A DNA stretch of 64,000 nt, from positions 2,362 through 66,361 of the forward strand of contig PLZO01000022.1 in assembly GCA_003152165.1 (NCBI GenBank). Direction: 5' to 3'. Both the position numbers and the translations under genes were made by a program. Under the pieces are notes generated by a model. The model had not been told where the DNA came from, did no database searches, and worked only from the letters and a program-made list of their open reading frames with translations. The stretch is from Chloroflexota bacterium. GTDB taxonomy: Bacteria; Chloroflexota; Limnocylindria; Limnocylindrales; CSP1-4. Of this stretch, positions 27,800 through 43,083 are shown piece by piece (position 1 is the first letter of the stretch; every line of letters starts with the position of its first letter).

Positions 27800-29040
27800 G
27801 CGCCGGCCCCGCCGGTCGCTGCTGCCACAGCCGCTGGGCGGATACCCATCATCTCGAGGGCGGCCGACTGGGCCGCCGCGACCCCGACACCGGGCTGGAC
27901 CCGGCGCTCGAAGCGGATCGACACCTCCTCGAGCACGCCGATCGCATCGAGGATCTCACCGAGGGTGACCGAACCCAGGTGGCCGAGCCGGAAGATCTGG
28001 CCGGCCAGCAGACCCTGGCCACCGGCCAGGATGACGCCTTCACCTTTCACTGCGCCGTTGATCGCTTTCCAGTCGAAGCCAGCCGGCACCCGGACGGCGG
28101 TCACCGTGCGTGAATAGTGGGCCGGATCCGCGAACAACTCGAAGCCGAGCGCCTCGATGCCCGCCCGAGCCGCCGCGGCGCAGGTCTCATGGCGGGCGAA
28201 GATCGCCTCGGCGCCCTCGCTCTCCATCAACTGCAGGCCGGCGTCCACCTGGTAGACGACCGCGATCGCCGGCGTCCAGGGCGTCTCGCCCAGGGCGTGG
28301 GCATCGCGATGCTTGCGCAGGTCGAGGTAGAACCGGGGCATCCGGGCGGTTTCCATCGCTGCCCACGCCCGCTCCGACGCGGCGACCATGGCCAGACCGG
28401 GAGCGGCCATCCACGCCTTCTGGGAGCCCGTCACGACCACGTCCACGCCCCAGGCGTCCATCTGGAAGGGCACAGCGCCAAGGCCCGAGACACTGTCGAC
28501 GATGATCAGGGCGTCGGGCTGGACCGCGCGGATTGCGGCGGCCAGCTCGGCGATCGGGTTCATCACCGCGGTCGACGTTTCGTTGTGGGTGAGCAGAACG
28601 GCCCGATAGCCCGGGTTAGCCTCCAGATGGGCGCGCACCTCGGAGGGGTCGGCGGCCCGGCCCCATTCGATCGACAACTTCGTCACGTCCGCCCCATAGA
28701 CGCCGGCGATCTTGGCGATCCGATCGCCGAACGCGCCAATCGACACCGCCAGGACCCGATCGCCCGGCGAGAGCGTGTTGACGACGGCTGCCTCGAGCCC
28801 GCCCGAACCCGCACACGACAGGATGGCCACGTCGCTGGTCGTCCCGAAGTAGGGCTTCATCCGGGTCAGGATCCGACCCAGCATCGCCGCGAATTCGGGG
28901 CTCCGGTGGTTGATCATCTGGCGGCCGCCCGCTTCCCGGACGCTGGGCGGCAGGGCGGTTGGTCCGGGGATCCGGAGGTTGGGCTCGAAGCGGTTCACGA
29001 ATCGGCTCCTGTGCTGATGCGGATCCCCGGACCGTGCCAT
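27796..29040 (-). CDS. Class-V aminotransferase (phosphoserine aminotransferase SerC-type or Ser/Ala-glyoxylate aminotransferase)
   Basis: IPGPT…MINHRSPEF N-terminus; PLP-lysine region. It lies adjacent to serA, which argues for a SerC role. Confidence 0.75.
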   Translation of the reverse strand: MARSGDPHQHRSRFVNRFEPNLRIPGPTALPPSVREAGGRQMINHRSPEFAAMLGRILTRMKPYFGTTSDVAILSCAGSGGLEAAVVNTLSPGDRVLAVSIGAFGDRIAKIAGVYGADVTKLSIEWGRAADPSEVRAHLEANPGYRAVLLTHNETSTAVMNPIAELAAAIRAVQPDALIIVDSVSGLGAVPFQMDAWGVDVVVTGSQKAWMAAPGLAMVAASERAWAAMETARMPRFYLDLRKHRDAHALGETPWTPAIAVVYQVDAGLQLMESEGAEAIFARHETCAAAARAGIEALGFELFADPAHYSRTVTAVRVPAGFDWKAINGAVKGEGVILAGGQGLLAGQIFRLGHLGSVTLGEILDAIGVLEEVSIRFERRVQPGVGVAAAQSAALEMMGIRPAAVAAATGGAGA

Positions 29041-29112
29041 GGGACCGGGGAGCCCTGGCGACCTTCGACCGCGTCTAATCGCGATCTTAGCCGGACCGGT
29101 GGGCGAGAGAGC

Positions 29113-29619
29113 TTAGCCGGAGGGTCCGGCCTGGGGATCGTCCGGATCTCCGCCCCCGACCCCGCCGCCGGCATCGCGCTTCTCGGTGTCCGCCAGCTTG
29201 CGCCGGTTCGTCTCGCGAGTTCTCAGGATCGAGCCGGCTGCCTTCATCGAGTCAACCGTGGGCGGGGGGTTGGCCGCCCGGCGCTGGCGGCCCAGCTCCC
29301 GAGCGGCCTGCCGGGCCGCGGCCCGGGCGGCCGTGCGTGCCCCGATCGTCGCCTCGTAGCCCTGCTCGCTCGGCTGGTAGTAGCGCCGTTCGGCCAGCGC
29401 TTCGGGCAGGTACAGCTGCGCGATGTCGGAGTCCTCGAAGTCGGGCGGATAGCGATAGCCAACGCCATAGCCATAGTGCTTCATGGCCGGATGCCCCGCG
29501 CTGCGCAGGTGGAGCGGGACCGGCAGCGCCCCACTCGCGTCAAGGTCCGCGACGGCCGCCCAGTAGGCGGTCCCGGATCGGTTCGACTTCGGGGCGGTGG
29601 CCAGGTAGGTCGTAGCTTG
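29113..29619 (-). pseudogene. Displaced 3' remnant of rarA (C-terminal ~170 codons, no 5' part)
   Basis: Translation (…TAPKSNRSGTAYWAAVADL…LPVPLHLRSAGHPAMKHYGYGVGYRYPPDFE…QGYEATI…) is about 60% identical to the C-terminus of the intact RarA at 41287-42795. Codon usage matches the host (GC3-rich). Homology stops at about 29620; the upstream 26 codons are unrelated. Confidence 0.7.
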
Positions 29620-29698
29620 CGCCCATGGACATCGTTCGTCGCGTCGATTATCGTGATCCTGGCGACCCCATTCGACCCCGAACTCGAAGGACCTCACG

Positions 29699-31018
29699 AT
29701 GACAACGATACGGCCCGCTGCCTATGTCAGGAAGAGCCATCGCGACGCCGTCTCGGCGACGGCTCAACTAGCGTCCATCCAGGAGCTTGCCATCCGGCAG
29801 GGTGTCACCGCACCGCTGGCGGTCTATGCCGATGTTGGGGTGTCCGGGCGTGCCGGGAAGAGGGGTGTCAAGTCAGAGTGGGGTCGCCTGCGCGATGACA
29901 TCACCGCGGGCTCCATCACCGTCGTCTACGTGACCGCCCTCGACCGTGCCGGTCGCTCACTCCTCGAATGGCTTCAGTTCGTCGAGCTCTGCGTCGCCAA
30001 GGGGGTCGAGGTCCGTGACCAGTCGGGCGTCGATCGAACGTCGGGTGACGCCGAGGACATCGCCACCATCGAGATGATGATGGCGCAACGTGAGGGGCGC
30101 AAAGCCGTCGAACGATCCGCCCGTGGTCGAGCCACGCAGGCCCGCAGGGGGGATGACGTCTACCAGGGCCACCCACCGTACGGGTGGATGCGCGTCAAGG
30201 ACGCCAACGGGCGCATCACGCAGATCGCCAACCCCGCCGAGCCGCTCCAACCCCTCCTAGAGGCCATCAGAGCCACCAAGGGGAACGTCTTGGCCGCGGC
30301 GCGGTTCCTATCCACCTCGGGAGTTCCGACGCGCTCCGGGCGGCCTTGGGACGCTCGGGTGTTGACCCGCGCTCTCGACCGCCAGGGAGTGATCCGGGCA
30401 CGACGCGAGGGCGCACGCCGACGTCGCGGTCCGTCCGACGCGCCGTTGTCGCGGATCGTCGTGTGCCACTGCGGCGCAACGATGACGCCCGAGCGCGATC
30501 GTCGCAACGGCCAATGGCTCGGCCTCGTGTGCTCGGTCGGGCGCAAGGCGGGTCAAGCGTCGCACGGGCGGTACATCGCACGATCGCGGCACGTCATGGA
30601 GTTGCTCAAAGCGTCAATGCGGGTCACCACCCACCACATCGAGCGATCGTCGCCGACCGACACCGCCGCGCAGCGGACCGACCTCGAGGCGAAGCGTCGC
30701 CGACTCGGCATGGCGTTGGCCGATGACGCGATCGGCGAGGACGACTACCGCGTCCGAATGGAGGCCGTCAAACGCGACCTCGCCGAGCTCGATGAGAGCG
30801 TCGCGGGCGAGGGTGAGTGGATCGGATGGACTCACGGTCCGTTGGTCGACTGGACGGTCGATGACGTCGCGCTCGGCGATCGCCTCCGGTCGCTAGTACG
30901 ATCCGTCACGCTCGACACGGACATGATGCCCGTCGCGGCCGACTACCGCGTCCCGTGGTTGCCCGCTGGCGTGTCGCGCTCGCGCCGCTCTACCGAAGAG
31001 AAGCCTTCCCACGCGTGA
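29699..31018 (+). CDS. Large serine recombinase (serine integrase)
   Basis: N-terminal resolvase-type catalytic domain (AAYVRKSHRD…TAQ…, catalytic Ser context), recombinase domain, zinc ribbon (CHCG…C), C-terminal coiled coil. 439 aa. Confidence 0.85.
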   Translation: MTTIRPAAYVRKSHRDAVSATAQLASIQELAIRQGVTAPLAVYADVGVSGRAGKRGVKSEWGRLRDDITAGSITVVYVTALDRAGRSLLEWLQFVELCVAKGVEVRDQSGVDRTSGDAEDIATIEMMMAQREGRKAVERSARGRATQARRGDDVYQGHPPYGWMRVKDANGRITQIANPAEPLQPLLEAIRATKGNVLAAARFLSTSGVPTRSGRPWDARVLTRALDRQGVIRARREGARRRRGPSDAPLSRIVVCHCGATMTPERDRRNGQWLGLVCSVGRKAGQASHGRYIARSRHVMELLKASMRVTTHHIERSSPTDTAAQRTDLEAKRRRLGMALADDAIGEDDYRVRMEAVKRDLAELDESVAGEGEWIGWTHGPLVDWTVDDVALGDRLRSLVRSVTLDTDMMPVAADYRVPWLPAGVSRSRRSTEEKPSHA

Positions 31019-31486
31019 GTGGGTCGGCCGCTCGCCACGCTTCGCCTCGCAATGGGCTCTGCTCTTCACGCGCGCGTTGCTCTGCGGTAGCGATGCAGTG
31101 GGCGTGTGTCGCAACCTGACGCTGCTCGAACTCGATCGCGCGTGCGGCGAACTCCGCATCCGTCTCCGCGGCGCGCGCGGGGATGACCTTGTCGTCTTCC
31201 CGCCGCTCAGCGCGTGCGGGCCACGGTTCAACGGGACCCCACATCGAGCACCACGAGCAATCGTGCCAGTCGGGAGGAACGTCCATGTCGGGAGTCTCGC
31301 ACCTGCCTCGCGCACGCCTCTACGACCTGAAAGTACCGCCGACGAGCCTTCGACCGAGCACGACGTAGAGAAGCGTCGAAACGCTCCCGGAGAGGGCATA
31401 GCGAGGCTCCACGCACGAATCTCGGGTCGAGAATCTGGCACTTTCACGAGAACGGGTGGAAACACGTCTTTGGGCCGTTCTACGAT

Positions 31487-31527
31487 CTAGCTGCGCCTAG
31501 CGCCTCGCTTAGAGTGGCTCTGGTAGA
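31487..31527. repeat. Cluster of phased TAG-containing repeats (CTAGC, CTAGC, TTAGAG, GTAGAG; 10-13 bp spacing) containing the 12-mer TAGAGTGGCTCT
   Basis: The 12-mer recurs at 37450-37461 inside a second cluster (cgcTAGAGtggctctTAGCGcgctccTAGCGtcc, 37447-37479). CTAG is otherwise rare in this high-GC DNA. Both clusters lie inside the island. Confidence 0.45.
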
Positions 31528-31678
31528 GGCGTCCTCCGCGTCACGCTCCCGTGCCAGGAGCGCCCAACATGGCGGGCAAAGGCCGAACCCACTCGCGGCG
31601 CTTCCGGCCATCCAGCGCGCATCGTGATGCGTCCATGGGCGGAGGCACCGCTCGCACGGCGGCGGGCCCGCGTCGCGC

Positions 31679-32128
31679 TCAGCCGACTCCAGCACCGATC
31701 AGACCGCGCGATCGAACGACTTCCACCACGTCCATGCCGTCGTCGGGTGCTGCGGGCGACGCATCGACCGAGCGGAGCACGCCGTCCTCGTCGATCGGAG
31801 GTGACTCCTTCGCCACCCGCGTCGCCTCGCTGTTCCCGCCGGTGAACGTCGACTCGACCGTGACCGGGCGACGCTCTTTGGGTTCGGCGATCGCGTGGAG
31901 CCGGTGCGACGCGAACGCGGTCGACATGGCCTCGTCGGTCCTGCCGCCGATGACCGTTCCGCATGAGCACACAGCGCGACGTTTCGCGCCGTAGCGGACC
32001 TCCGCCACGACATGGCCGACGGCCATCCGCGAGCGGTTGCCTCCGAGCCGCTGGCCTGAATTCCATGAGGAGTGGCCCCTCACCGCGGCACCATGGCCGC
32101 GACGCACGCCGCGAGGATGAAGAGCCAT
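31679..32128 (-). CDS. Hypothetical protein (last gene of the minus-strand coupled operon); start uncertain (ATG 32128 or ATG 32026)
   Basis: ORF follows the upstream gene stop (32151) after 22 nt. No recognisable domain; contains CSCG. Confidence 0.3.
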   Translation of the reverse strand: MALHPRGVRRGHGAAVRGHSSWNSGQRLGGNRSRMAVGHVVAEVRYGAKRRAVCSCGTVIGGRTDEAMSTAFASHRLHAIAEPKERRPVTVESTFTGGNSEATRVAKESPPIDEDGVLRSVDASPAAPDDGMDVVEVVRSRGLIGAGVG

Positions 32129-32150
32129 ACCACGAAGAAGACGATCGTTC

Positions 32151-32330
32151 TCACCGCGTGGTGTCCGCGACGTTCGCCCTGATGCCGTCCTCGACGGCGG
32201 TCTGGACACGGGCGAGGCGGAGTGCTTCGCGACGCAGCGTGACGGCGTCGATCGCCTCCCGCCGCTGTCGCTCACGCTCCCGCTGCGTCGCGGACTTCGC
32301 GTGCGGAACGGCGGTGGCCATGTGGCCCAT
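32151..32330 (-). CDS. Small hypothetical protein (59 aa, Arg/Glu-rich helical)
   Basis: ATG at 32330 overlaps the upstream stop as ATGA (translational coupling). Sequence MGHMATAVPHAKSATQRERERQRREAIDAV…. Confidence 0.4.
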   Translation of the reverse strand: MGHMATAVPHAKSATQRERERQRREAIDAVTLRREALRLARVQTAVEDGIRANVADTTR

Positions 32331-33175
32331 CACCGGACCGTCCCGTCGGGCCGCGTCGCGGTGATCGTGGACCCGGTGGAGCCACGCTCTGACGACTTGG
32401 CCATCCCGGCGGGTTCGACATACTCCTCGCCGACCGCCCACGCCCCCATGGCCGCGGACATCTTCGCCGCGATCGACGTCTCGGCGCGTACCTTGAGCGA
32501 CGCGGTCACGACCTCGGGTCGGCCCGCAGCGAGGGCGGCATCTTCGATCAACTTGAGGACCTGCGTCTGCGACGCGAGGATCGCGCGCTCGTGTTCGATG
32601 GCCGCGGCTTGAGCGCGCGCCTCAGCCTGGACGAACACGCGACGCGCGGGATCAGCCAGATCGTAGTCCATATCGATGCTCTTGACGATGCTTCCCGCCG
32701 TTGCGTCGCCGAGTTGGCTTGCCGCCTGCGCGAGTACCCGTGCCTGCGAGAGCGCGCCGAGGCCGTAGAGGTTGATCGCCCGCTCGGAGAGCGACGCAAC
32801 GCGGTCCTTGTCCACCGTGCCGTTGGCCGTCTTCGCGTCGCGCACGAGCTGCGCGACTTCCGCCCGATCGGACGCGCGACGCGCCTCCTCGGCGGGTGAC
32901 TGGACGCGATCGCGTTCGGTCGCGAGGCCCTTCCGTGCCTCACGGACGATGTAGCCCGTCAAGCGCGACGTGCGCTCACGCGCCACGGCGGCGGCCGTGT
33001 CGAACGTGCCACGCGCGGTGGCCAAGTCGGCATCGAGCGTCTTCGGGTCGATGAGCACGCCCTGTGTCGCGCGCTCGGTGATGCGGATCGCTTGTGAGTT
33101 GATCTTGAGCACGTCCGCGTTGAACGCATCGGCGACGTCTTTCAACGTGTAGGTGGGTACTTCAGTCGGTGGCAT
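32330..33175 (-). CDS. Hypothetical alpha-helical protein (281 aa)
   Basis: ATG at 33175 preceded by gaaggagg at -5. Non-repetitive helical sequence; possible phage structural, scaffold-like or regulatory protein; no motif recognised. Confidence 0.55.
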   Translation of the reverse strand: MPPTEVPTYTLKDVADAFNADVLKINSQAIRITERATQGVLIDPKTLDADLATARGTFDTAAAVARERTSRLTGYIVREARKGLATERDRVQSPAEEARRASDRAEVAQLVRDAKTANGTVDKDRVASLSERAINLYGLGALSQARVLAQAASQLGDATAGSIVKSIDMDYDLADPARRVFVQAEARAQAAAIEHERAILASQTQVLKLIEDAALAAGRPEVVTASLKVRAETSIAAKMSAAMGAWAVGEEYVEPAGMAKSSERGSTGSTITATRPDGTVR

Positions 33176-33329
33176 GTGGGCCTCCTTCGAGGTTGGTGAT
33201 GATCCGATCGAGTACGTCCCGATCGCGCGTGGTGTCGAGCGCCCAAGCCGCCGCCAGGAGACGGATGAGGATCCGCTCCAGCGGTGTGAAGCTCGGTTCG
33301 GTTACTGATGTGCGACGCTTGCTCTTCAT
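33162..33329 (-). CDS. Small hypothetical protein (55 aa)
   Basis: ATG at 33329 overlaps the upstream stop as ATGA, with an aggagg RBS 5 nt upstream. Its stop overlaps the start region of the next gene. Confidence 0.45.
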   Translation of the reverse strand: MKSKRRTSVTEPSFTPLERILIRLLAAAWALDTTRDRDVLDRIITNLEGGPHATD

Positions 33330-33997
33330 GTGTCCTCCTGTGTCCTTAGGTGCTCCTTCACGTCAGGCGACGCGTTGGCCATGCCCGTAGCGTGGTGTTC
33401 CGTGTGCCGCCGGACCTCCGCCCGCGACGCCTCGATCGCCGCGGTCGGCTCCACGTAGTCGACCCACGGCATGAGCGGTAGGCCCAACGTCGCCCGGAGT
33501 GCGTTGGCCGCGTCGAAGCGGGCCCGTGGGTACGGGAGCAGCGCCGTGAAGAGCTGCGCTTCGAGGCCGCTCTCGACGAAGGCCTCCACGGCGATCGCGC
33601 CGGTGTCGCGCGTGTCCGCCGGCGGGGTGCCGATCCGTGCGAGGTCAGATGCCGCTCGTCTCCGCTCGGCGAGGATGCCCAAGCGCACGCCGGGACCGAC
33701 CGAGTCGAGGGGGATGTCCAGTCCGGCGATCACGCTCCGGAGGAGTTCCTCGGCGGTCAGCGGTAGTTCCTTCGCCTGCGTGGCTTCTGTTCGCCTGGGT
33801 GGCTCTTGCGGGCTACCGGTGACCACCGGAACGACATGCCCATTGCGCTTGTGCCGTGCGATCGCGTCCCGGTGGCAGCCGATCATCCGTGCGATCACGA
33901 CAGCGGGTCGACCGGCCAGGATCATGGAGTCGGCCATGGCCCGCTGCGGATTGCTGCAGACGGTACAGCGGCTCCCGATCACGGGTCCCTTGCTCAT
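33326..33997 (-). CDS. Zinc-ribbon + HTH DNA-binding protein (first gene of operon)
   Basis: I place the start at the ATG at 33997 (RBS ggaga at -7). N-terminus CTVCSNPQRAMADSMILAGRPAVVIARMIGCHRDAIARHKRNGH is a CxxC zinc ribbon plus an HTH, resembling phage small terminase/regulator N-termini. Confidence 0.55.
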   Translation of the reverse strand: MSKGPVIGSRCTVCSNPQRAMADSMILAGRPAVVIARMIGCHRDAIARHKRNGHVVPVVTGSPQEPPRRTEATQAKELPLTAEELLRSVIAGLDIPLDSVGPGVRLGILAERRRAASDLARIGTPPADTRDTGAIAVEAFVESGLEAQLFTALLPYPRARFDAANALRATLGLPLMPWVDYVEPTAAIEASRAEVRRHTEHHATGMANASPDVKEHLRTQEDT

Positions 33998-34088
33998 GGT
34001 CGTGTCTCCGGTCGCGCAGACACGACAGCGGTTGCGGTCCGTGCGCGGTGAACTCCCGGCGTGGTAACTTGCGACCCGGAGGTCGCGA

Positions 34089-34122
34089 GTTCTTCGCGAC
34101 GTGACGTGGACACGCGAAGAAC
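34089..34122. promoter_or_regulatory. Inverted repeat gttcttcgcg-N14-cgcgaagaac upstream of the 33997 operon; candidate operator
   Basis: 10-bp perfect inverted repeat flanking acgtgacgtggaca, about 90-125 bp upstream of the operon start. Embedded TCGCGA hexamers. Confidence 0.35.
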
Positions 34123-34139
34123 GCATCTGCGTACAAGCG

Positions 34140-34840
34140 GGTGAGAAGCCGCCTTCACAAACTGCTCCCCGGAAACGACGCCCGCGGGATACACCCCGGG
34201 GGTTGATACACGCCCCCTAGACGGTTGAGAGCACGTGTAAGAGGCACCGGCGGGGGCCGAGCGGCCGTTGCGTACGTCCGTCACGATGTCGCCCCTCTCA
34301 GTGGCAGTGCAGAGCGTGAATATGTATTTATCACAGCGGGGCATGCGACTCGTGGATATGTATTCACGAACGTACCCAACCGACGGCTATGTGTGTGCAC
34401 ACGTACGTCCACGAGGGATCGACTTCCGACAACGGCACCCGCCACCAACCAACGCTTGTAATGCAACCGCGAGGAATACTCGGAGGAACTGCCCCCGCAT
34501 ATCCACACACCCGCGCATGCAAGCGGCGCACCAAAGCGCCTCGAATACCTCGGTCGGCCGTCCACAACACCCGCGGCCCTCTGCACAACGGCCCCGTCCG
34601 TGCACCGAGCCGACACAAGAGCGGCACTCACACGACTCACCGATGCTTCGTGGGTGTATCCGCGGCCCCGAACCACATCGGCCGTCTGAGGGTGACCGGC
34701 ACGAGAGCGAGCAATATACTCAGTGCCGTTCTTTACATGCCCCGCTAATCGACACACGCCGTTGTACTCAAGCGGCCGCTTCCCGTATACGATAGCAACG
34801 TCATTCCGGAGCACTCCGGAGAACGAACCCGAAGGAGATG
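34140..34840. other. About 700-bp non-coding, comparatively AT-rich region with multiple short direct repeats (iteron-like)
   Basis: No credible ORF in any frame. Repeats: GATACAC(G)CCCC x2 (34188-34216); ATATGTATT(TAT)CAC x2 (34319-34366); CGTACGTCC x2 (34270, 34401); ACACCCGCG x2 (34507, 34567). Runs of CA/ACAC. Confidence 0.5.
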
Positions 34841-34841
34841 C

Positions 34842-35054
34842 ATGTTCCCATACACCATCGACTCGAGCCCCACCAAAGCAACCCCGAAGCGAACCGCTCC
34901 GAAGCGGATCTGGGTCCACTCCACACACGCCGTCATGGCCGCCGCGCGACGTTGGGATATGGAGCACATCCCGGCGATCCGAGCCGCCGAGGAAGCTCAC
35001 CCGAGTGTCGGCTTCGAGCGCGACGAATACGGGCCTCTCATCCTCAACTGGTAG
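34842..35054 (+). CDS. Small hypothetical protein (70 aa)
   Basis: ATG preceded by gaaggaga at -5. Sequence MFPYTIDSSPTKATPKRTAPKRIWVH…; no known motif. Confidence 0.5.
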   Translation: MFPYTIDSSPTKATPKRTAPKRIWVHSTHAVMAAARRWDMEHIPAIRAAEEAHPSVGFERDEYGPLILNW

Positions 35055-35164
35055 CCGACCACGATCGTCGTTGGCAGTGGTCAGTGCTAATGGCAGTGGT
35101 GACCACTTCCCGCCGTTGAGACCGGCATTCCATCCGCGCCTCCACGAACACTGACCACTACCAC

Positions 35165-35210
35165 CCCCCCTATTTATATAGGGGATAGGGGTGGTAGTGG
35201 TAGTGGTGAG
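35165..35210. terminator. Strong hairpin (13-bp perfect stem ccactaccacccc / ggggtggtagtgg, AT-rich loop ccctatttatataggggata) between convergent genes; putative bidirectional terminator
   Basis: Perfect 13-bp inverted repeat with a 20-nt loop, located between the 3' ends of 34842..35054(+) and 35231..35902(-). No U-tract, as is common in high-GC genomes. Confidence 0.45.
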
Positions 35211-35230
35211 GCGTGGTGCCCACAAGTGAC

Positions 35231-35902
35231 TCATACGTCCTCGGGGTCGGCGTCGGGATCGACACGGAAGTACAATCGCTTCTTCGCTCCGCCGACACTT
35301 GTCGCGACGTAGACGACTCGTAGTTTCCCGTCTTCAACGAGTTCCGCGACGCGCTTCCGGACCGTCTCGCGAGACCGCCCACTGACCTCAACGAGCGACG
35401 CCATGTCGAGCCCCTCACCGTCGGTCGGGATCGCGTCGAGGAAGCTCTCCCACTCGTCTTCCGAAGCGACGTTCAACGCCTTCGTGGCAGCGGCCTCGGC
35501 GCGGAAGACGTTGTAGAGGCACGTGTAGACGGCTTCGGTGTACTTGAACCCGCTTTGAGTGAACCGCTCACCGTCGCGTACAACGCACTTGGAGTCATCC
35601 CCGTACGTGTCCGACGGTAAGCCGACACGAGCGAGCTCTTTGGCCGCCCACACGTCGCGAGCGGTACGCGCTTCCTGGTAGGACGGGAACGTGCCGTCCT
35701 GTTTCGACCAACGGTTCTTCCCGTGGATGAGCGGGTCGAATACGTCGCGGAAGTCGTACGCGCTCGTGGCCTTCGGGCGGTCGGGATCATCGAGCGCCGT
35801 GCGAATATCCACGGGAAGCTCTTCGCGACGCAACGGGCGTGGTGGTTGAGGCCGTTGGGCGTAGTGCGTGTCGGTGCGTGCGTTCCAGTCGATGGGGCTC
35901 AC
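35231..35902 (-). CDS. Hypothetical protein with a C-terminal winged-helix-like segment (223 aa)
   Basis: GTG start overlaps the stop of the upstream XRE gene (GTGA). C-terminus …LVEVSGRSRETVRKRVAELVEDGKLRVVYV… is wHTH-like; the N-terminal 150 aa are unassigned. Confidence 0.5.
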   Translation of the reverse strand: MSPIDWNARTDTHYAQRPQPPRPLRREELPVDIRTALDDPDRPKATSAYDFRDVFDPLIHGKNRWSKQDGTFPSYQEARTARDVWAAKELARVGLPSDTYGDDSKCVVRDGERFTQSGFKYTEAVYTCLYNVFRAEAAATKALNVASEDEWESFLDAIPTDGEGLDMASLVEVSGRSRETVRKRVAELVEDGKLRVVYVATSVGGAKKRLYFRVDPDADPEDV

Positions 35903-36330
35903 GACGTCACGCTCTCGGCGACGCGGTCGGCGAGGAACGCGTCTACCTCCGCCACCGAATGGAGGCGATTGTCGTCGTAGGGCGGGTCAAGGAAGATGTC
36001 CCAAGACGCTCCTTCGACAGTACTCTGGCCACCGCCATCAACGCCGATGCCAGCGACGCGGAGTCGGTCTTCTTGGGAGTGTCGCTCCACGAGCGACGCA
36101 TCGACACCGGTCACGCTCTCGGCGATCGCCATCAGCCGCGACGCGCGGCCAGGTTCATTCCGTGGTGACCCGTGTCGTTCGACGATGGCCACGAGTGATT
36201 GTGAGAGTCCACCCAATTGCGCGAGCTCACTTTGGTTCAGTCCCGCCCGTAAGCGGGCCCGACGTAGTGCGACACCTTCGGTTGGGCGTGGTGCGCGTTC
36301 GGTGACGTAGCGTGGTCCTATTCGTGTCAT
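35899..36330 (-). CDS. XRE-family HTH protein with an uncharacterised C-terminal domain (repressor-like)
   Basis: ATG at 36330 with aaggaagg RBS. HTH LRRARLRAGLNQSELAQLGGLSQSLVAIVERHG; C-terminal region contains DIFLDPPYDDN. Divergent from the 36818 gene across a 470-bp region. Confidence 0.6.
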   Translation of the reverse strand: MTRIGPRYVTERAPRPTEGVALRRARLRAGLNQSELAQLGGLSQSLVAIVERHGSPRNEPGRASRLMAIAESVTGVDASLVERHSQEDRLRVAGIGVDGGGQSTVEGASWDIFLDPPYDDNRLHSVAEVDAFLADRVAESVTS

Positions 36331-36493
36331 TCGGTACCTTCCTTTCACTCATTCGTGCGAGTTGGTGGCGTGTAGAGAAGTCGATCGTTCAGTAGTATTC
36401 CCGAATGACAAGGCGGGTTCACGGTGACCCGACGATCACCCATTGGTAGCGGGGTGTTCTCGGGAGTCCAACCCGGTCTTCCGCCATTCTTCC

Positions 36494-36717
36494 GAACGTT
36501 CACGTTCGACTGCTTGGGTGATACGACTATTGTAACGCATGCTCGCCGGCTATGCGCACCTATAACCCACCGGGTGACGTCGCCAGACCACTCAGTGACG
36601 TTGCCCATATGAAGTCGATCGGATACGCGGTGATGTCATCAGCGCGCCTCTCCGTCGTTTCCTAGACGGTGTCGCCTGAATGCGCCATTGAAGTCGGCGA
36701 AGTTGCGTTTCACGTTC
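36494..36717. promoter_or_regulatory. Divergent promoter/operator region with repeated TTCACGTTC motifs
   Basis: gaACGTTCACGTTCgac at 36494-36510 (overlapping palindrome GAACGTTC) and a second TTCACGTTC at 36709-36717; a TTCACGG at about 36416. Lies between the XRE gene and the 36818 gene. Confidence 0.4.
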
Positions 36718-36817
36718 AAGTTGGCTATGGACAATCTGCGCGATCAGCGCGAAGGTTGACGTTGTCGTCGATCGACGATCACCAACGAACGACCGCGAGG
36801 TCGAAAGGGACTTTTCA

Positions 36818-37312
36818 ATGACACGGATCGCAACCGCCAAGGACGCCGCCGCCGCCATCAAGGTCATTCGGGCCCCGAAGGCCGCGAAGGTCGCGCCGAT
36901 CGTCGACACCGCCGCGAAGATCGTCGGCCAGTGCGTTGCATCGCCAACGCGAGCCCCACACATCAAGGTTCGTTGCACGAACCCGATCGGCACCATCAAT
37001 CACGTCCTTTGCGACGAACACGCCGAACTTCTCAAGGCCAACGCGAAGGCCGCCAAGGCGTCCGCGCCAAAGAGCGCGAAGGCGAAGCCCGTCAAGCCGA
37101 AGTCGGCGGGAACGTCAAAGGCTTCCACGAAGGCACCGAAGATCGTCACCGCTCCCGAACTCCCGACGCACGCCGCGAAGGTCGCCCGCACGTCGATCAT
37201 GCAACCCGCGCTCGCTCGCATCCCGCGACCGAGCACGTGGACGCCAACCGTCGAGCAACCCGCCACGTACGTCAACCTCGTGACGCCAGGCGGACCCGAA
37301 CCGACCGAATAG
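36818..37312 (+). CDS. Basic Ala/Lys-rich protein with a Cys/His cluster and a histone-H1/HU-tail-like repeat region
   Basis: RBS gaaaggga. Contains C-x11-C-x10-C-x2-H (CVASPTRAPHIKVRCTNPIGTINHVLCDEH), then KANAKAAKASAPKSAKAKPVKPKSAGTSKASTKAPK. Confidence 0.5.
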   Translation: MTRIATAKDAAAAIKVIRAPKAAKVAPIVDTAAKIVGQCVASPTRAPHIKVRCTNPIGTINHVLCDEHAELLKANAKAAKASAPKSAKAKPVKPKSAGTSKASTKAPKIVTAPELPTHAAKVARTSIMQPALARIPRPSTWTPTVEQPATYVNLVTPGGPEPTE

Positions 37313-37733
37313 TCGTCGATCGACGATCGACCCCCACGAGGCCCGACCAACATCGGGCCTCGTTCCATGTCCGGCGCCGCCACCCGTCCACTCAGAGGCG
37401 ATGCCCAAGCGAAGTCGCGAAACTACCCGACTTCACCGGCTCCGTTCGCTAGAGTGGCTCTTAGCGCGCTCCTAGCGTCCAGGCGCGCGACTCCGAGCAA
37501 ACGCCGCCACCACGGGACTGTACTCACGAAGGAACTCCTCTCCGCAGGCCCGATCTCGGCGTCGTCCGACCAGCGCACTCTGGGGCGTCGCGGTCCCTAT
37601 GTACACGGCGCGCCCGCGCGCGTATCGTGGCCTTGCGCGTTTGCGCAAGGACGCAACCATGGAGGACCACAGTGGATCGCCGCCACCTGGCCCGTGACAG
37701 GCGGGCCGTCACGACGCCCGGCATACTCAGACC

Positions 37734-38768
37734 ATGACCGACGAGCGACCACCTGTTGAGCCAGTCCTACAGACCGAACTCGGGGCGCTCTACGCGGGAG
37801 ACTGCGTCCCGCTCATGCGGGCGCTGCCTGCGGGATCGGTCGACCTTTTCTTCGCCGATCCACCCTTCAACCTCGGCAAGGACTACGGGGTCGCCGCGCC
37901 GGACAACCACACCGAAGACCGCTATCTGAAGTGGTGCTTCGAGTGGCTGTCCGAAGGAGTCCGGCTGCTCAAACCGGGCGGGTCGATGTTCGTCTACAAC
38001 CTCCCGAAGTGGTCGATCCCCATTGGCGAGTTCCTACGGACTCGGTTGACCTTCCGGCACTGGATCACGGTCGAGATCAAGTTCGGGCTTCCGATCACGG
38101 GTCGCCTCTACCCGAGCCACTACGGCTTGCTCTACTTCGTGAAGGGGAAGCGGCCGAACCGCTTCGACCCGCCGCGCCTCGCGATGCCGACCTGCCGGCA
38201 CTGCGGCGGCGAGATCCCGGACTACGGCGGCTACAAGGACAAGATGAACCCGAAGGGGCTCAACCTCTCCGACGTGTGGAGCGACATCGCGCCGGTCCGC
38301 CACTCGCGGTTCAAGAATCGGGAAGCGAACGAACTGTCGCTCAAGCTGATGGATCGAGTCCTCGACATCGGCTCGGCGCCTGGCGACATCGTCCTGGACC
38401 CCTTCGGCGGAGCCGGGACCACCTACGTCGCGGCCGAACTCAAGCACCGCCGCTGGATCGGGATGGAGTTGAGCACCGCTGACGCTATCGTGGATCGGTT
38501 CGCCGACCTCAGCCAGGATCGGGCGAACCTTCGCCGATACCGGTCGGGGATCAACACCCTGTTCACGCCCGAGGCGTTGGCCCTGCGCGCCCGGTCGGGC
38601 ATGGGCAGGAACAACCACCGGTACAACATCGAAGGGGCCGCGCCCGACGCTCGACTCAACGGAGAGGTCCACCAACTCTCGCTCGACACCACCGAGACAG
38701 TCGAGTCGATCGAGGGTGGGCTAACGAAGAGCCCGGCCGTCGGTTCCCTTCCGGATGAGCGGCACTAA
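37734..38768 (+). CDS. DNA methyltransferase, beta-class (N4-cytosine or N6-adenine), Type II R-M
   Basis: Motif IV DLFFADPPFN precedes motif I DPFGGAGTT (circularly permuted beta order). Contains a Cys cluster CRHCGGE. Confidence 0.8.
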   Translation: MTDERPPVEPVLQTELGALYAGDCVPLMRALPAGSVDLFFADPPFNLGKDYGVAAPDNHTEDRYLKWCFEWLSEGVRLLKPGGSMFVYNLPKWSIPIGEFLRTRLTFRHWITVEIKFGLPITGRLYPSHYGLLYFVKGKRPNRFDPPRLAMPTCRHCGGEIPDYGGYKDKMNPKGLNLSDVWSDIAPVRHSRFKNREANELSLKLMDRVLDIGSAPGDIVLDPFGGAGTTYVAAELKHRRWIGMELSTADAIVDRFADLSQDRANLRRYRSGINTLFTPEALALRARSGMGRNNHRYNIEGAAPDARLNGEVHQLSLDTTETVESIEGGLTKSPAVGSLPDERH

Positions 38769-39446
38769 CGGATCGGTCGCGTCGTAGCTGACGACAATCA
38801 CGGCCAAGCGGCCAGGAACGTCGACTCGACCGTAGACCTCGCGGTACAGCGATAGCTCGCGCCAGTTGCCGGTCCGGTCGGTGAGGTAGCGGTAGAGATC
38901 GCCATCGGGGAGGCACAAGACGGCCTGCTGCGCGAGACCACGCATCAAGGCGACGGTCAGTCGGTTGAGTGACCGATGCGAGCTGCTGATATTGCCGGTC
39001 TCCCACTCGACCAACGTGGACCAGGCGCTCGCCAGCGCCTTGCCCGCGTCGAAGCCGCCTCGACGGCCAAAGAGCGGGATCTCCATCGTCCAGCCACGCG
39101 CCTTCAGGTCGAGGGCGAATGCTTGCTTGATCGGCACGACACCGTTGCCTTGTCGCTTCGGGTTGATCGTGAACTTGCCCGATCCGGGCGGCCAGTGGAT
39201 CGTCGGGATGACCAACCTGATCTGGGCGAGGTCGGCGTCGGCAACCGCGATCTCACCGGGGTCAGTGAGTCGATCGAACAGGACGACCTCTTCCGCGATC
39301 AGCACGGACCGAGAGTACAACGCGTCACCCCCAATGGGCCAAACGCGGCGCTCGTCCACGAGACCGTCATGGCGACTGACCCAACAAGTGGTCTGGCTCG
39401 CCTCGCATAGCGGAGAGGATGCCAATTCGGACACCCCCACGTGCAA
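38721..39446 (-). CDS. Putative Type II restriction endonuclease (convergent partner of the MTase)
   Basis: 241 aa, convergent with the MTase and overlapping its 3' end by about 48 nt. Possible PD…(D/E)xK elements (TDPGE … ALDLKA). No family-level match recognisable by eye. Confidence 0.4.
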   Translation of the reverse strand: MHVGVSELASSPLCEASQTTCWVSRHDGLVDERRVWPIGGDALYSRSVLIAEEVVLFDRLTDPGEIAVADADLAQIRLVIPTIHWPPGSGKFTINPKRQGNGVVPIKQAFALDLKARGWTMEIPLFGRRGGFDAGKALASAWSTLVEWETGNISSSHRSLNRLTVALMRGLAQQAVLCLPDGDLYRYLTDRTGNWRELSLYREVYGRVDVPGRLAVIVVSYDATDPLVPLIRKGTDGRALR

Positions 39447-39781
39447 GTGGGCGCCTAATGCCGTGGGAATAAGCGTGCGGAGCTATTTGTCGTAATAGCC
39501 CGATGTCTATTGAGCAACGCACCGGTCGCGTAATCGAGCCGAATCTTGCCACGATCGCGCACAAACATAGGCTTCCATATGTAACGCGGCGCCACGGATG
39601 CCGCATATCCACCTGGCTGGTATGTCGAATGGTGACGGACTCGTTGGCTGGGGGAGATCCGGATACGCGAGCCAGGACGATTGCCGTAACGATGTCATGG
39701 AGACGGACTTGACAGGCCGGGCATTCCGTGCAAACTCAACATCGTCAACTTCGGCAGTCAACGATGGAGGACGGATTAGCG

Positions 39782-40375
39782 ATGAACCCCGACGACGTGA
39801 CCCATATTCTCGCAGGCGCGGTCAAGGCAGTGACCGACGCCAAGGTGCCGCCGGACCTGGCACCGGTTGCCTTCGAAAAGGCGATCGACATGCTCGCCGG
39901 CCCGCGGCCGGTGGCAGCTTCGACAACGGCGACATTGGGGGTGCCAACCTCGGTCGCCGCGCCGACCACGCCCACCGGGTCAGCGATCGACCGCTTGGCG
40001 ACCCGCCTTCATCTTTCGCACGAGGTTGTCGAAGCCGTCTTTACGGAGAACGGAGATGAGCTCGCGATCAGCGTGCCGCCCGATCGGTTGGCGAAGGCCA
40101 AGAGTGCAGGCGCCCGTGAGATCGCCCTGCTCGTCGCGGCCGCGCGCCAGAGCAGCTCGGATGATCCGACAACGACCGACCAGATCAGGCGGGCTGTCGA
40201 GGATTACAACCGATTTGACGGGCCGAATTTCGCCTCGTCTCTTTCGCCGATGAAGGGAACATTCCTCGTCGCCGGTCCCTCGCGCTCGCGAACCTTCAAG
40301 TTGACGAAGCCTGGATGGACGGCTGCCGCCTCGCTGGTCGGCCGGTTGGGCGCCCCTGACAAGTCAGCATCGTGA
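39782..40375 (+). CDS. Hypothetical protein (198 aa), first gene of a 2-gene cassette
   Basis: ATG with ggagga RBS. Helical N-terminus, Ala/Thr/Pro-rich linker, C-terminal domain. Its stop overlaps the next start (ATGA). Confidence 0.5.
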   Translation: MNPDDVTHILAGAVKAVTDAKVPPDLAPVAFEKAIDMLAGPRPVAASTTATLGVPTSVAAPTTPTGSAIDRLATRLHLSHEVVEAVFTENGDELAISVPPDRLAKAKSAGAREIALLVAAARQSSSDDPTTTDQIRRAVEDYNRFDGPNFASSLSPMKGTFLVAGPSRSRTFKLTKPGWTAAASLVGRLGAPDKSAS

Positions 40376-41193
40376 CCACGGGGCGAGCCCGAACGGCCTC
40401 TCACTCGCCGGTCCCAGCTGCGAGCACCGGGGGTCCGGCCGCGGTGCTCGGCGGCCTGCCCCTCGGCATCAGGCAGGAGCTCATCGACGAGTTGAACAAG
40501 ATCGAGCGCCATTTCCGCGAGGGCCGCTGGGAACCTGCGGAACTCGACGGCGGGCGACTGTGCGAGATCGTCTACTCGATCGTCCGCGGCGAACTGGACG
40601 GCAAGATCCCGTCCAAGGCGTCCAAGCCGACCGACCTTGTTGGGGCGATCCGGGCCCTCGAGGGCGTGCCAGCATCGACCGGACCGCGATCGTTCCGGAT
40701 CACGATCCCGCGCGCCCTTCTCGGGATCGTGGACGTCCGGAACGATCGTGACGTTGGCCATATCGGCGGCGAGGTCTCCTCTAACCACATGGATGCCTCC
40801 TATGTCCTTGCCGGTGCCAAGTGGCTGGTCGCCGAGCTTGTCCGCTACTACCACCAGGTCGACACCGCGACCGCCACCACGTTTGTTGAAGCGTTGATCG
40901 AACGGGACACCCCAGCTGTTTGGCAGGTCGCGGGCACGAAGCGACTACTCCTGCATGGCGTCTCGATGCCTGATCGGACCCTCGTGGCCCTCGATTCGAC
41001 CGCCGGACCGGTCCATACCACGGACCTCCGGGAGTGGACGGGCTACTCCAACGCGACGCTGTTCCGGCAGAGCATCCTGGTCGAGCTGCATCGCGCCGAT
41101 CTCATTCACTACGACCGCAAGACTGGCCTTGTGTATATCTCGCCGCTCGGTGCCAAACGTGTCGCCGACCACCTACACCAGTGGGTCGCCTAG
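40372..41193 (+). CDS. Hypothetical protein with a possible HEPN-like R-x6-H motif and a C-terminal winged-helix-like region (273 aa)
   Basis: …ITIPRALLGIVDVRNDRDVGHIGGEVSSNHMDASYVLAGAKWLVAELVRYYH… then …ELHRADLIHYDRKTGLVYISPLGAKRV. Translationally coupled to the upstream gene. Located in the island beside the R-M system. Confidence 0.5.
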   Translation: MTTGRARTASHSPVPAASTGGPAAVLGGLPLGIRQELIDELNKIERHFREGRWEPAELDGGRLCEIVYSIVRGELDGKIPSKASKPTDLVGAIRALEGVPASTGPRSFRITIPRALLGIVDVRNDRDVGHIGGEVSSNHMDASYVLAGAKWLVAELVRYYHQVDTATATTFVEALIERDTPAVWQVAGTKRLLLHGVSMPDRTLVALDSTAGPVHTTDLREWTGYSNATLFRQSILVELHRADLIHYDRKTGLVYISPLGAKRVADHLHQWVA

Positions 41194-41286
41194 ATCTTGG
41201 TCAATACGATCAATTAGGCGTCGATCCCAGGTGACAACGCTGTGGTACTCGGCGCGTTCCTTGCCGCCGGCTCCACGATCCCTCCC

Positions 41287-42795
41287 TCAAGTTCCAGCGT
41301 CGCGCTTCTGCGTCTCCGCGAGCTTCTTGCGGCTCTCGTTGTGGGCGTTCAGCCCGTCGCTCATCGACCCCATCGGGTCGAGGCCCGGCCGATCCTGCTT
41401 CCGACGCTGGCGACCAGCTTCCCGAACAGCTTGCCGAGCACCATCTAATACAGCCATCCGCGCGCGGACCGTCGCTTCGTAGCCCTGGTCGCCCGGCACG
41501 TAGTACCGCTGCTCCACGAGGGCATCGGGAAGGTACTGCTGCGAGATGTCGTCGCCCTCGAACTCGTGGGGGTTGCGGTAGCCGACACCGTCGCCGTATT
41601 GCTTCATGGCCGGATGACCCGCCGTCCGGAGATGCGCCGGGACCGGCAGCGATCCGTACTTCAACACGTCAGCCATCGCCGCGGCATAGGCGCGACCTAC
41701 CGCGTCCGACTTGGGCGACGACGAAATATGGACGGTCGCCTGGGCGAGGGCGTACTGGGCCTCGGGCAGGCCCACGTGGTCAAGGGCCTGGGCCGCGGCC
41801 ACCGCCACCTGGAGCGCCCGGGGATCGGCGTTGCCGACGTCCTCGGAGGCGCTGATGATCAGCCGCCGGACGATGAACCGGGGATCCTCGCCCGCCGCGA
41901 TCATCGTGGCCAGCCAGTACAGCGCGCCATCGGGATCGTTGCCCCGCAGGCTCTTGATGAAAGCGGAGGCCGTGTCGTAATGGCCGTCGCCGGCCCGGTC
42001 GTAGGCAAGGACCCGTTGCTGGGCGGCGGCCTCGACTTCGGCCAGTCGGGGCGCGACCCGACCCTCCAAATCGCGCACGCCGGCCGATTCGGCCAGGGCG
42101 GTGGCGCCTTCAAGCACATTGAGCGCCTGGCGGGCGTCCCCGCCGGCCAGTCCGACGAGGTGGGCGAAAGCGTCGTCCGGCAGGCTCACCCCACCACTAG
42201 GGCCGAGCGCGCCGGCCAGTCCCCGGTCGGGATCATCGATCGCACGGCGGACCACGGTTCGTACGTCACCGTCGGACAGCGGCTCCAGGCGCCAGACCCG
42301 CAGACGCGACAGGAGCGCGCTGTTCAACTCGAAATAGGGGTTCTCGGTCGTGGCCCCGATCAGGATGATCGTGCCGTCCTCGACGTGGGGCAGTAAGCCG
42401 TCCTGCTGGGATTTGTTGAAGCGGTGGATCTCGTCGATGAACAGAACGCTGCGCGCTCCGTTGAGGCTCAGCCGCTCACGCGCCGTCGCCACCGTCGAAC
42501 GGATCTCGGCGACGCCGCTCATCACCGCCGACAGGCTCATGAAGTCAGCCCCGATCGCGTCGGCGAGGAGCCGGGCCAGGCTGGTCTTGCCCGTCCCCGG
42601 CGGGCCCCACAGCAGGATCGACCCGAGGTAGCCGCGTTCGACCGAGCGGCGCAGAGGACCCTCCTCCCCGACGAGTTGAGCCTGGCCCACGTACTCGGCC
42701 AGCGTTCGCGGGCGCATCCGGGCGGCCAGGGGCTGGACGCCCGGCGGGGGCTGAAAGAGGGCGGCCTGGTCTGGAGCGGGACGGCGCGTCGGCAC
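41287..42795 (-). CDS. rarA: Replication-associated recombination protein A (AAA+ ATPase RarA/MgsA); chimeric, with the 3' ~450 nt supplied by the integrated element
   Basis: Walker A GPPGTGKTS, Walker B LFIDEIHRF, MgsA C-terminal domain (…LRTAGHPAMKQYGDGVGYRNPHEF…). Codon usage shifts to AT-ending codons downstream of …LAQAT (about 41735). Confidence 0.85.
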   Translation of the reverse strand: MPTRRPAPDQAALFQPPPGVQPLAARMRPRTLAEYVGQAQLVGEEGPLRRSVERGYLGSILLWGPPGTGKTSLARLLADAIGADFMSLSAVMSGVAEIRSTVATARERLSLNGARSVLFIDEIHRFNKSQQDGLLPHVEDGTIILIGATTENPYFELNSALLSRLRVWRLEPLSDGDVRTVVRRAIDDPDRGLAGALGPSGGVSLPDDAFAHLVGLAGGDARQALNVLEGATALAESAGVRDLEGRVAPRLAEVEAAAQQRVLAYDRAGDGHYDTASAFIKSLRGNDPDGALYWLATMIAAGEDPRFIVRRLIISASEDVGNADPRALQVAVAAAQALDHVGLPEAQYALAQATVHISSSPKSDAVGRAYAAAMADVLKYGSLPVPAHLRTAGHPAMKQYGDGVGYRNPHEFEGDDISQQYLPDALVEQRYYVPGDQGYEATVRARMAVLDGARQAVREAGRQRRKQDRPGLDPMGSMSDGLNAHNESRKKLAETQKRDAGT

Positions 42796-43083
42796 CCGCT
42801 CAGTCTACGACCGGATCACCTCGGCTCGGACCGGGAGAAGGAGCCGGCTACGTTCGAATAGGCTTGCCGCGCAGCTCAGGCCACGCTGCTCTGTGGCGTC
42901 CAGATCTGGCGGAGTGGCCGGCCGTCGCCCGGCAGCGGGGCGTTCTCGGCGGTCTCGAGCGGCTCCGAGCACGACGATGACGACCTTGTCGGTGGTCGCG
43001 GCCACCGTGTTCAGGATCGTCTGAGCTTCGCGGTAGATCTCGAAGACGGCCGGGGTCGTGCCATTGAGTCCGGGGATCGGGAC

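Follow-up and report, generated by a model that had tools for sequence, protein, structure and literature searches.

A candidate toxin-antitoxin-like module of a HEPN-winged-helix protein and a winged-helix partner on a mobile element of a Chloroflexota bacterium

The gene pair and its two proteins

The 64,000-nt stretch of DNA analysed here (the window) comes from the Chloroflexota bacterium assembly GCA_003152165.1, where it occupies positions 2,362 to 66,361 of the forward strand of contig PLZO01000022.1. It contains two small overlapping genes on the plus strand, here called A and B, which form the subject of this work. Gene A (39782-40375) opens with an ATG at 39782 and comprises 198 codons including the stop, i.e. 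197 aa, and gene B (40372-41193) opens with a GTG at 40372 and encodes 273 aa. They share the 4 nt GTGA, in which the GTG at 40372 opens B and the TGA at 40373-40375 closes A. An earlier sequence-only reading of the window, which had singled out the pair, gave the correct length for B and for the overlap, but its 198 aa for A becomes 197 and its overlap sequence, ATGA, becomes GTGA.

The ATG at 39782 is preceded by 11 nt, on the same strand, by a Shine-Dalgarno-like GGAGG (39766-39770, read from the sequence), and homologues start at an equivalent M(N/D)P.DV; both features support this codon over an upstream GTG at 39728 as the start of A. For B, a second in-frame GTG at 40444 would give a protein of 249 aa and is used by one public gene call for an identical locus. 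The first ~25 residues of the longer form are poorly conserved and modelled with low confidence, and the longer start at 40372 agrees with the overlap pattern seen across the family. GC content at third codon positions (0.74 in A and 0.80 in B) and the homologues found in a set of 5.8 billion proteins (24 for A and 114 for B, all unnamed) show that both open reading frames (ORFs) are genuine genes. No sigma-70-like promoter was found in the region upstream of A. An inverted repeat in this region, CATCGTCAACT-N5-AGTCAACGATG (39740-39766, 16 nt 5′ of A), was considered as an operator and set aside, as it scores no better than shuffled sequence.

Protein B was modelled with AlphaFold2 from a 42-sequence alignment, with a predicted local distance difference test score (pLDDT) of 88 and a predicted template modelling score of 0.74. 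The model consists of a HEPN-like domain (residues ~28-176, 40453-40899, plus strand) and a C-terminal winged helix-turn-helix (HTH) (residues ~177-273, 40900-41190, plus strand). The four helices of the HEPN-like domain span residues 31-49, 60-76, 106-124 and 137-161, and the insert between the second and third holds a further short helix (89-96). In passages of the HEPN survey PMC3710099, the superfamily is defined by a pair of helical hairpins in which an insert separates helix 2 from helix 3, by an R-x4-6-H motif running from the end of helix 3 into the loop before helix 4, by a polar residue following the arginine, and by an acidic residue in helix 2 that is often part of an E-x3-[KR] motif. 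B has the four-helix up-down bundle with its insert, the motif R123-N124-x5-H130 at the end of helix 3 (40738-40761, plus strand), and an acidic residue in helix 2, Glu-65. The suggestion of the sequence-only reading that the VRNDRDVGH segment of B is a HEPN-like motif is thus borne out by its position in the fold, and the helical core and C-terminal winged helix that it had proposed for B are recovered by structure prediction and by conservation.

Residue conservation was assessed in 316 distinct homologues of B with a mean identity of 53%. Arg-123 is kept in 314 of them, Arg-126 and His-130 in 315 each, Glu-65 in 305, Asp-141 in 314 and Trp-151 in 311; Asn-124 is kept in 293 and is replaced by serine in 20. 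The position four residues after Glu-65 is arginine in 75/316 only, so that the full E-x3-[KR] form is partial. Non-catalytic HEPN domains exist and, according to the same passages of PMC3710099, typically do not carry the R-x4-6-H motif. The near-invariance of the active-site residues indicates that the HEPN domain of B is a predicted enzyme rather than a degenerate member of the superfamily.

The model of A (pLDDT 80) begins with a helical hairpin (residues 3-38), which is followed by a disordered linker with pLDDT below 50 (residues ~41-64), a small helix/beta-hairpin sub-domain (residues ~65-100) and a C-terminal winged HTH (residues ~105-190). This is the layout anticipated from the sequence, namely a helical N terminus, a disordered linker and a C-terminal domain, the last now recognizable as a winged helix. 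A nucleotidyltransferase fold, which had been offered as one option for the pair, is not supported: A has no such fold and no match to Pfam NTP_transf_2, and its sole globular match is the winged helix. In the predicted structures the winged helices of A and B are both MarR/PadR-like; a common origin of the two was considered and is not supported, with an hhalign probability of only 6-47%.

In agreement with the earlier statement that neither protein is a named family, no Pfam, NCBIfam, PADLOC or PHROGs model matches A or B, and PADLOC-DB v2.0.0 returned no families for either at E values up to 1. Searching Pfam with the B family gave Abi_C alone, below threshold, in 3 of the 42 members (best E 0.028, ~0.03), and the family consensus and the most distant B members gave only noise. 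A sequence search of the PDB with the B profile produced nothing meaningful, and Foldseek found no match to the B model in the PDB at E <= 1e-3. Weak Foldseek matches over the whole length of B to Fic-plus-winged-helix and PCI proteins were read as shared architecture only and kinship was not accepted; the Fic motif HxFx(D/E)GNGRxxR is not visible in B, as judged by eye. B passes as a member of the HEPN superfamily by structure and motif, yet belongs to no curated HEPN family. A housekeeping fold, which would have counted against the original proposal, was found for neither protein.

Conservation and distribution of the pair

The occurrence of B was surveyed with one genome per species across 185,579 species, and its pairing with A was counted at the best 80 loci. 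B is present in 223 of the 185,579 species genomes, which belong to at least a dozen phyla, among them Chloroflexota, Actinomycetota, Proteobacteria, Bacteroidota, Planctomycetota, Nitrospirota, Acidobacteriota, Gemmatimonadota, Cyanobacteria, Deinococcota and several lineages of the candidate phyla radiation (CPR). An exhaustive search with the B profile yielded 1501 clusters at 50% identity. The CPR/Patescibacteria carriers are metagenome-assembled genomes that usually contain the partner as well (L026, L028, L045, L057, L063, L065 and L081); they include Saccharibacteria, Woykebacteria, Nomurabacteria and Paceibacterota, all with very small genomes.

At 66 of the 80 loci a same-strand ORF of 140-290 aa ends at the start of B. 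The 4-nt overlap is present at 29/80 loci, and most of the others have a gap of no more than 5 nt; the loci beyond the 66 mostly retain recognizable A sequence that is broken by stops or frameshifts. The A partners form two sequence types that are homologous to each other over 165 columns (hhalign probability 97%, E 5.7e-11). A evolves much faster than B, diverging at about twice its rate, with mean pairwise identities of 23% and 53%, respectively, and the two nonetheless co-diverge, as shown by comparison of their distance matrices (Mantel r 0.56, equalled in 0/2000 permutations). The frequency of the partner ORF, the homology of the partners and their co-divergence answer the question of whether the pair is conserved together elsewhere, as the sequence-only reading had expected it to be.

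The family was also sought in mobile genetic elements. None of 50,697 phage genome records matches it, and 2.9 million viral contigs contain one partial match. Plasmids yielded one weak match, to B, at NC_007427.1 2195-2563; this is a hypothetical protein of Natronomonas pharaonis plasmid PL131 that is 27.8% identical over residues 35-160, i.e. the HEPN part. On the basis of this distant match, the B type of HEPN domain may extend to archaea. A phage or plasmid origin of the pair was rejected, given that these three sets hold scarcely any matches. The family is thus distributed in the manner expected for selfish or defence cargo.

The mobile element in rarA and neighbourhoods elsewhere

In the window the pair lies at one end of a region of lowered GC content (0.60-0.65, as against ~0.69-0.70 outside). 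Its left boundary is a displaced 3′ fragment of rarA/mgsA (29113-29697, minus strand; 194 aa, matching MgsA_C positions 63-164), which adjoins a serine recombinase gene at the left end of the element (29699-31018, plus strand; Pfam Resolvase, 1.4e-19; PHROG integrase, 3.1e-42). On the other side of the pair stands a full-length rarA/mgsA (41287-42795, minus strand; Pfam MgsA_C, AAA_assoc_2 and AAA). The fragment is 54% identical in amino acid sequence to residues 339-501 of the full RarA, and the alignment of the two copies runs back from the stop codon as far as roughly codon 339; at the DNA level they contain a 199-nt repeat of 77% identity at a spacing of 12,123 nt. From the fragment, its identity to full RarA, the spacing and the abutting recombinase, it appears that rarA was interrupted by an integrative element of ~12.1 kb (29113-41781 region) that carried in a replacement 3′ end, the displaced and presumably native end surviving as the 194-aa fragment. 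The diverged last ~165 codons of rarA, beside B (about 41287-41781), seem to come from the element, and full-length rarA is thereby restored. The boundaries and the low GC content uphold the earlier view that the pair is island-borne, and identical copies of the element occur in several metagenome assemblies.

Besides A and B, which lie beside the substitute rarA end, the element carries several unannotatable genes, an HTH protein and a Type II restriction-modification (R-M) pair, and it contains no tRNA, reverse transcriptase (RT) or Rfam RNA. The R-M pair, correctly noted in the sequence-only reading as adjacent, consists of a DNA methyltransferase (37734-38768, plus strand; Pfam N6_N4_Mtase, 2e-35; PADLOC MTase_II, 7.5e-113) and a BamHI-family restriction endonuclease (38721-39446, minus strand; Pfam BamHI, 5.9e-35; PADLOC REase_II, 7.7e-39). 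These two genes are convergent, with 3′ ends that overlap by 48 nt (38721-38768), and no gene for a controller (C) protein was identified between the two. The A-B pair is 335 nt from the restriction gene and divergently transcribed from it.

Two repeat features were noted elsewhere on the island. A 22-nt motif, GAGTGCTTCGCGACGCAGCGTG, occurs three times (32220-32241, 34087-34108 and 35816-35837) with 77-82% identity and a spacing of ~1.7-1.9 kb, each copy just within the 5′ end of a hypothetical gene that points leftward; it may encode an N-terminal peptide common to paralogues, or else serve in regulation. At 35128-35223, inside the 5′ part of a 317-aa gene, a microRNA-precursor model of Rfam matches both strands at 28 bits against a threshold of 81, which implies a long hairpin or palindrome and is probably merely an inverted repeat.

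In the clade to which the window belongs the pair is found repeatedly at the 3′ end of rarA, and this linkage, considered as a family-wide feature, proved to be confined to that clade. One such relative, L095 (9397-10828), whose RarA is 74% identical, carries in turn another 3′ fragment of rarA, a remnant of A comprising its last 39 aa, an intact B with the motif IRNDRDVGH and a full rarA; a 42.8-kb JGI contig was noted together with it. Neither L095 nor this contig contains an R-M system, and L095 also has no recombinase; its arrangement looks like a decayed rarA-targeting element that has retained B. Further afield, a Type I R-M system lies directly upstream of the pair in L096, and in Mesorhizobium the pair adjoins Type I R-M, SIR2 and ART genes. 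In Streptomyces it is near an integrative conjugative element and in Puia near conjugation genes. On a 1-Mb metagenomic contig a gene for the Pycsar effector PycTM lies 2.5 kb from the pair (L008, 11291-11872), and in Kribbella an NTP_transf_2 gene is followed by a 140-aa ORF, possibly a minimal nucleotidyltransferase (MNT)-HEPN pair (L007, 3526-4529).

A systematic sample of the 150 nearest neighbours in 25 genomes, drawn without a matched control set, consists mostly of genes that look housekeeping. Its defence-type members are AbiEi, one MTase_II, two AAA_21/AriA-like genes, two mad3 genes and a CHAT gene, and it also includes three HTH_17 genes, Replic_Relax and TrwC. Adjacency to R-M is not conserved across the family. 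The classic defence-island context described in the sequence-only reading is seen in the window, where the R-M genes adjoin the pair, but no consistent signal of this kind emerges from the sample. Because its neighbours are variable and mostly housekeeping-like, the pair is best seen as a self-contained mobile module and not as a fixed component of defence islands.

Relation to known systems and proposed function

The HEPN ribonucleases (RNases) of abortive-infection (Abi) and toxin-antitoxin (TA) systems catalogued by Anantharaman et al. 2013 include, in passages of PMC3710099, AbiJ/Abi_C, AbiD/F, AbiU2, AbiV, RnlA/LsoA and HepT. B shares with them the four-helix core with its insert, the R-x6-H motif with asparagine after the arginine and the acidic residue in helix 2, and the A-B pair shares their patchy spread on mobile islands, sometimes beside R-M genes. 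Among the passages of PMC3710099 that match the search terms, none was found that describes a ~255-aa HEPN protein with a C-terminal winged helix and a dedicated upstream winged-helix partner. HepT/MntA, the type VII TA system, resembles A-B in having two small co-oriented and often overlapping genes, with a downstream HEPN RNase controlled by the upstream product. The partner in that system, however, is an MNT that AMPylates the toxin, whereas A consists of hairpin, linker and winged helix, and B, roughly double HepT in size, has its own winged helix. With a partner that is not an MNT, assignment to HepT/MntA is ruled out, and AMPylation of B is not expected because A is not a nucleotidyltransferase. 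AbiE (AbiEi/AbiEii, type IV) likewise has an upstream winged-helix antitoxin and repressor and a downstream enzyme toxin, and is mobile with a dual TA/Abi character. The AbiEii toxin is a DUF1814 nucleotidyltransferase and not a HEPN protein, the winged helix of AbiEi is N-terminal where that of A is C-terminal, and neither A nor B has a sequence match to AbiE; the different toxin fold rules out this assignment.

The type IX retron Kva2 has a HEPN toxin around which a second protein, whose C-terminal domain is a (winged) HTH, is wrapped, and this winged-helix protein alone mitigates toxicity (bioRxiv 10.64898/2026.07.14.738597). Both systems would thus combine a HEPN toxin with a separate protein of ~200-250 aa with a C-terminal (winged) HTH, and by this analogy the Kva2 pair is the closest studied functional counterpart of the relation proposed here for A and B. 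The gene order is nevertheless opposite, the winged-helix gene coming first in A-B; the HEPN protein of Kva2 has no canonical R-x4-6-H, where B has R-x6-H; and the HEPN domain of B, unlike that of Kva2, is fused to a winged helix. PADLOC matches neither A nor B, in a library whose coverage of type IX retron effectors was not checked. No RT domain is present in the island ORFs scanned, nothing above noise was returned by Rfam in 28500-43000, and RVT_1 is absent from the 25 most frequent of the 108 neighbour families listed for other genomes. With neither RT nor non-coding RNA on the island, A-B is ruled out as a retron.

A and B are adjacent, co-oriented, co-translated small genes that are paired across unrelated genomes, as in type II-like TA systems, and together they represent a candidate conflict module of two genes, built on HEPN, that combines a novel winged-helix partner with a HEPN-winged-helix fusion. 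The reading we favour, with a probability of about 0.55, is that this is a self-contained, horizontally mobile TA- or Abi-like module in which A restrains B. We infer that B has RNase activity and is toxic, that A neutralizes it and that a trigger lifts the restraint. B would be the effector, its HEPN domain a predicted metal-independent endoribonuclease acting through Arg-123, Asn-124 and His-130 together with Glu-65, and the predicted role of its C-terminal winged helix is in binding nucleic acid or the partner. A would be made first from the shared, translationally coupled transcript, would keep B inactive and might repress the operon via its own winged helix; its labile part would be the helical hairpin and the protease-prone disordered linker. 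If A were lost or titrated, whether through proteolysis of the linker, through interference or infection by phage, or because the 12-kb element is lost, B would be set free to cleave cellular RNA, and the resulting growth arrest would stabilize the element, abort the infection, or both. As in the sequence-only reading, we also infer a possible role in defence or abortive infection, and the evidence is no less compatible with a self-contained TA-like module than with a system dedicated to anti-phage defence. A more specific version, in which the pair would act as a stand-alone abortive-infection system, is a tentative proposal with the odds clearly against it. Here A would be a winged-helix 'cage' that holds the HEPN-winged-helix RNase B until a phage cue arrives, and the pair would be a retron-independent counterpart of the type IX HEPN/winged-helix pair that is distributed through no fewer than a dozen phyla, the reduced CPR genomes among them; it is possibly a relative or precursor of the type IX retron effector pair.

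Several observations weigh against restraint of a toxic B by A. No curated model matches either protein, as described above. Upstream of A at 56 loci, inverted repeats show no excess (4 at p <= 0.05), and no operator is supported, in the window or elsewhere among these loci. A winged helix on the toxin itself is unusual for classical type II systems. The sampled neighbours, with no control set for comparison, give no consistent defence-island signal. In addition, at least seven loci have an A that is frameshifted, interrupted by stops or truncated beside an intact B with its catalytic motif (Mesorhizobium, in two assemblies, L014, L020, L034, L075, L083 and L095), and such breakage would not be expected in an indispensable antitoxin if its toxin is always active, which weakens the case. 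Frameshifts in A were located at L003 (5657-6297) and L004 (7364-8004), an identical frameshift being present in the two Mesorhizobium assemblies, and the breaks lie mostly in or near the linker between the two domains of A. Such loci may represent true pseudogenes, genes that were split or errors of assembly; they might also reflect lost expression of B or an A that is not essential. They fit a latent B better, and they also fit a B whose expression is tied to A; an antitoxin role for A would possibly be retained if expression of B depends on the promoter of A and on translational coupling.

A latent B that is harmless alone is the basis of a different proposal, namely a defence system in which A, as sensor, activator or co-effector, would respond to a cue from the phage, for instance foreign DNA or one of its proteins, and switch B on. 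If B is inert alone the broken-A loci are easily explained, and the winged helices of both proteins could sense nucleic acid, the fast evolution of A fits an arms race with phage, and R-M genes adjoin the pair in the window, in L096 and in Mesorhizobium. However, the 150 sampled neighbours, with no control set for comparison, show no consistent defence-island signal, PADLOC gives no hit, and a small DNA-binding gene followed by an overlapping enzyme gene is the classical antitoxin-toxin layout. Moreover, Kva2 is the nearest analogue to have been studied, and its winged-helix protein acts on the HEPN enzyme as an inhibitor and not as an activator; we consider this proposal unlikely. More doubtful still is a non-toxic regulatory pair, in which A and B would be winged-helix transcription factors of mobile elements and the HEPN domain of B would serve in ligand binding or dimerization. 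The MarR/PadR-like winged helices of both proteins, the existence of non-catalytic HEPN domains and the toleration of a broken A beside an intact B in several genomes are consistent with it. Against this, non-catalytic HEPN domains typically lose the R-x4-6-H motif, and Arg-123, Arg-126, His-130, Glu-65 and Asp-141 are kept in 305-315 of the 316 homologues of B; no conserved operator-like repeats were found upstream of A, and the patchy spread across phyla with variable neighbours points to no conserved target operon.

The proximity of the pair to the BamHI-like genes on the same island raises the further idea that it serves as their accessory, a back-up suicide RNase coupled to restriction. 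HEPN genes are often linked to R-M operons, and for several that are embedded in them a role as suicide RNase has been proposed, according to passages of PMC3710099; Type I R-M genes adjoin the pair in L096 and Mesorhizobium. This explanation is nonetheless very improbable, as the pair is divergent from the restriction gene, the neighbour sample contains one Type II methylase only, and the close relatives L095 and the 42.8-kb JGI contig carry the pair without R-M.

HEPN RNases are among the commonest effectors in bacterial conflict systems. As HEPN-based TA and Abi modules are already well known, the gain from the present pair is incremental rather than conceptual. The B family nevertheless amounts to ~1,500 clusters in at least a dozen phyla, with an almost invariant active site and no curated model or name, and defining the pair would give TA and defence annotation a new searchable family. 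A fast-evolving winged-helix partner in place of the usual nucleotidyltransferase implies that this HEPN toxin would be controlled in a different way, for which the type IX retron is the only studied parallel. A-B would thus offer a simple two-protein system for winged-helix gating of a HEPN nuclease.

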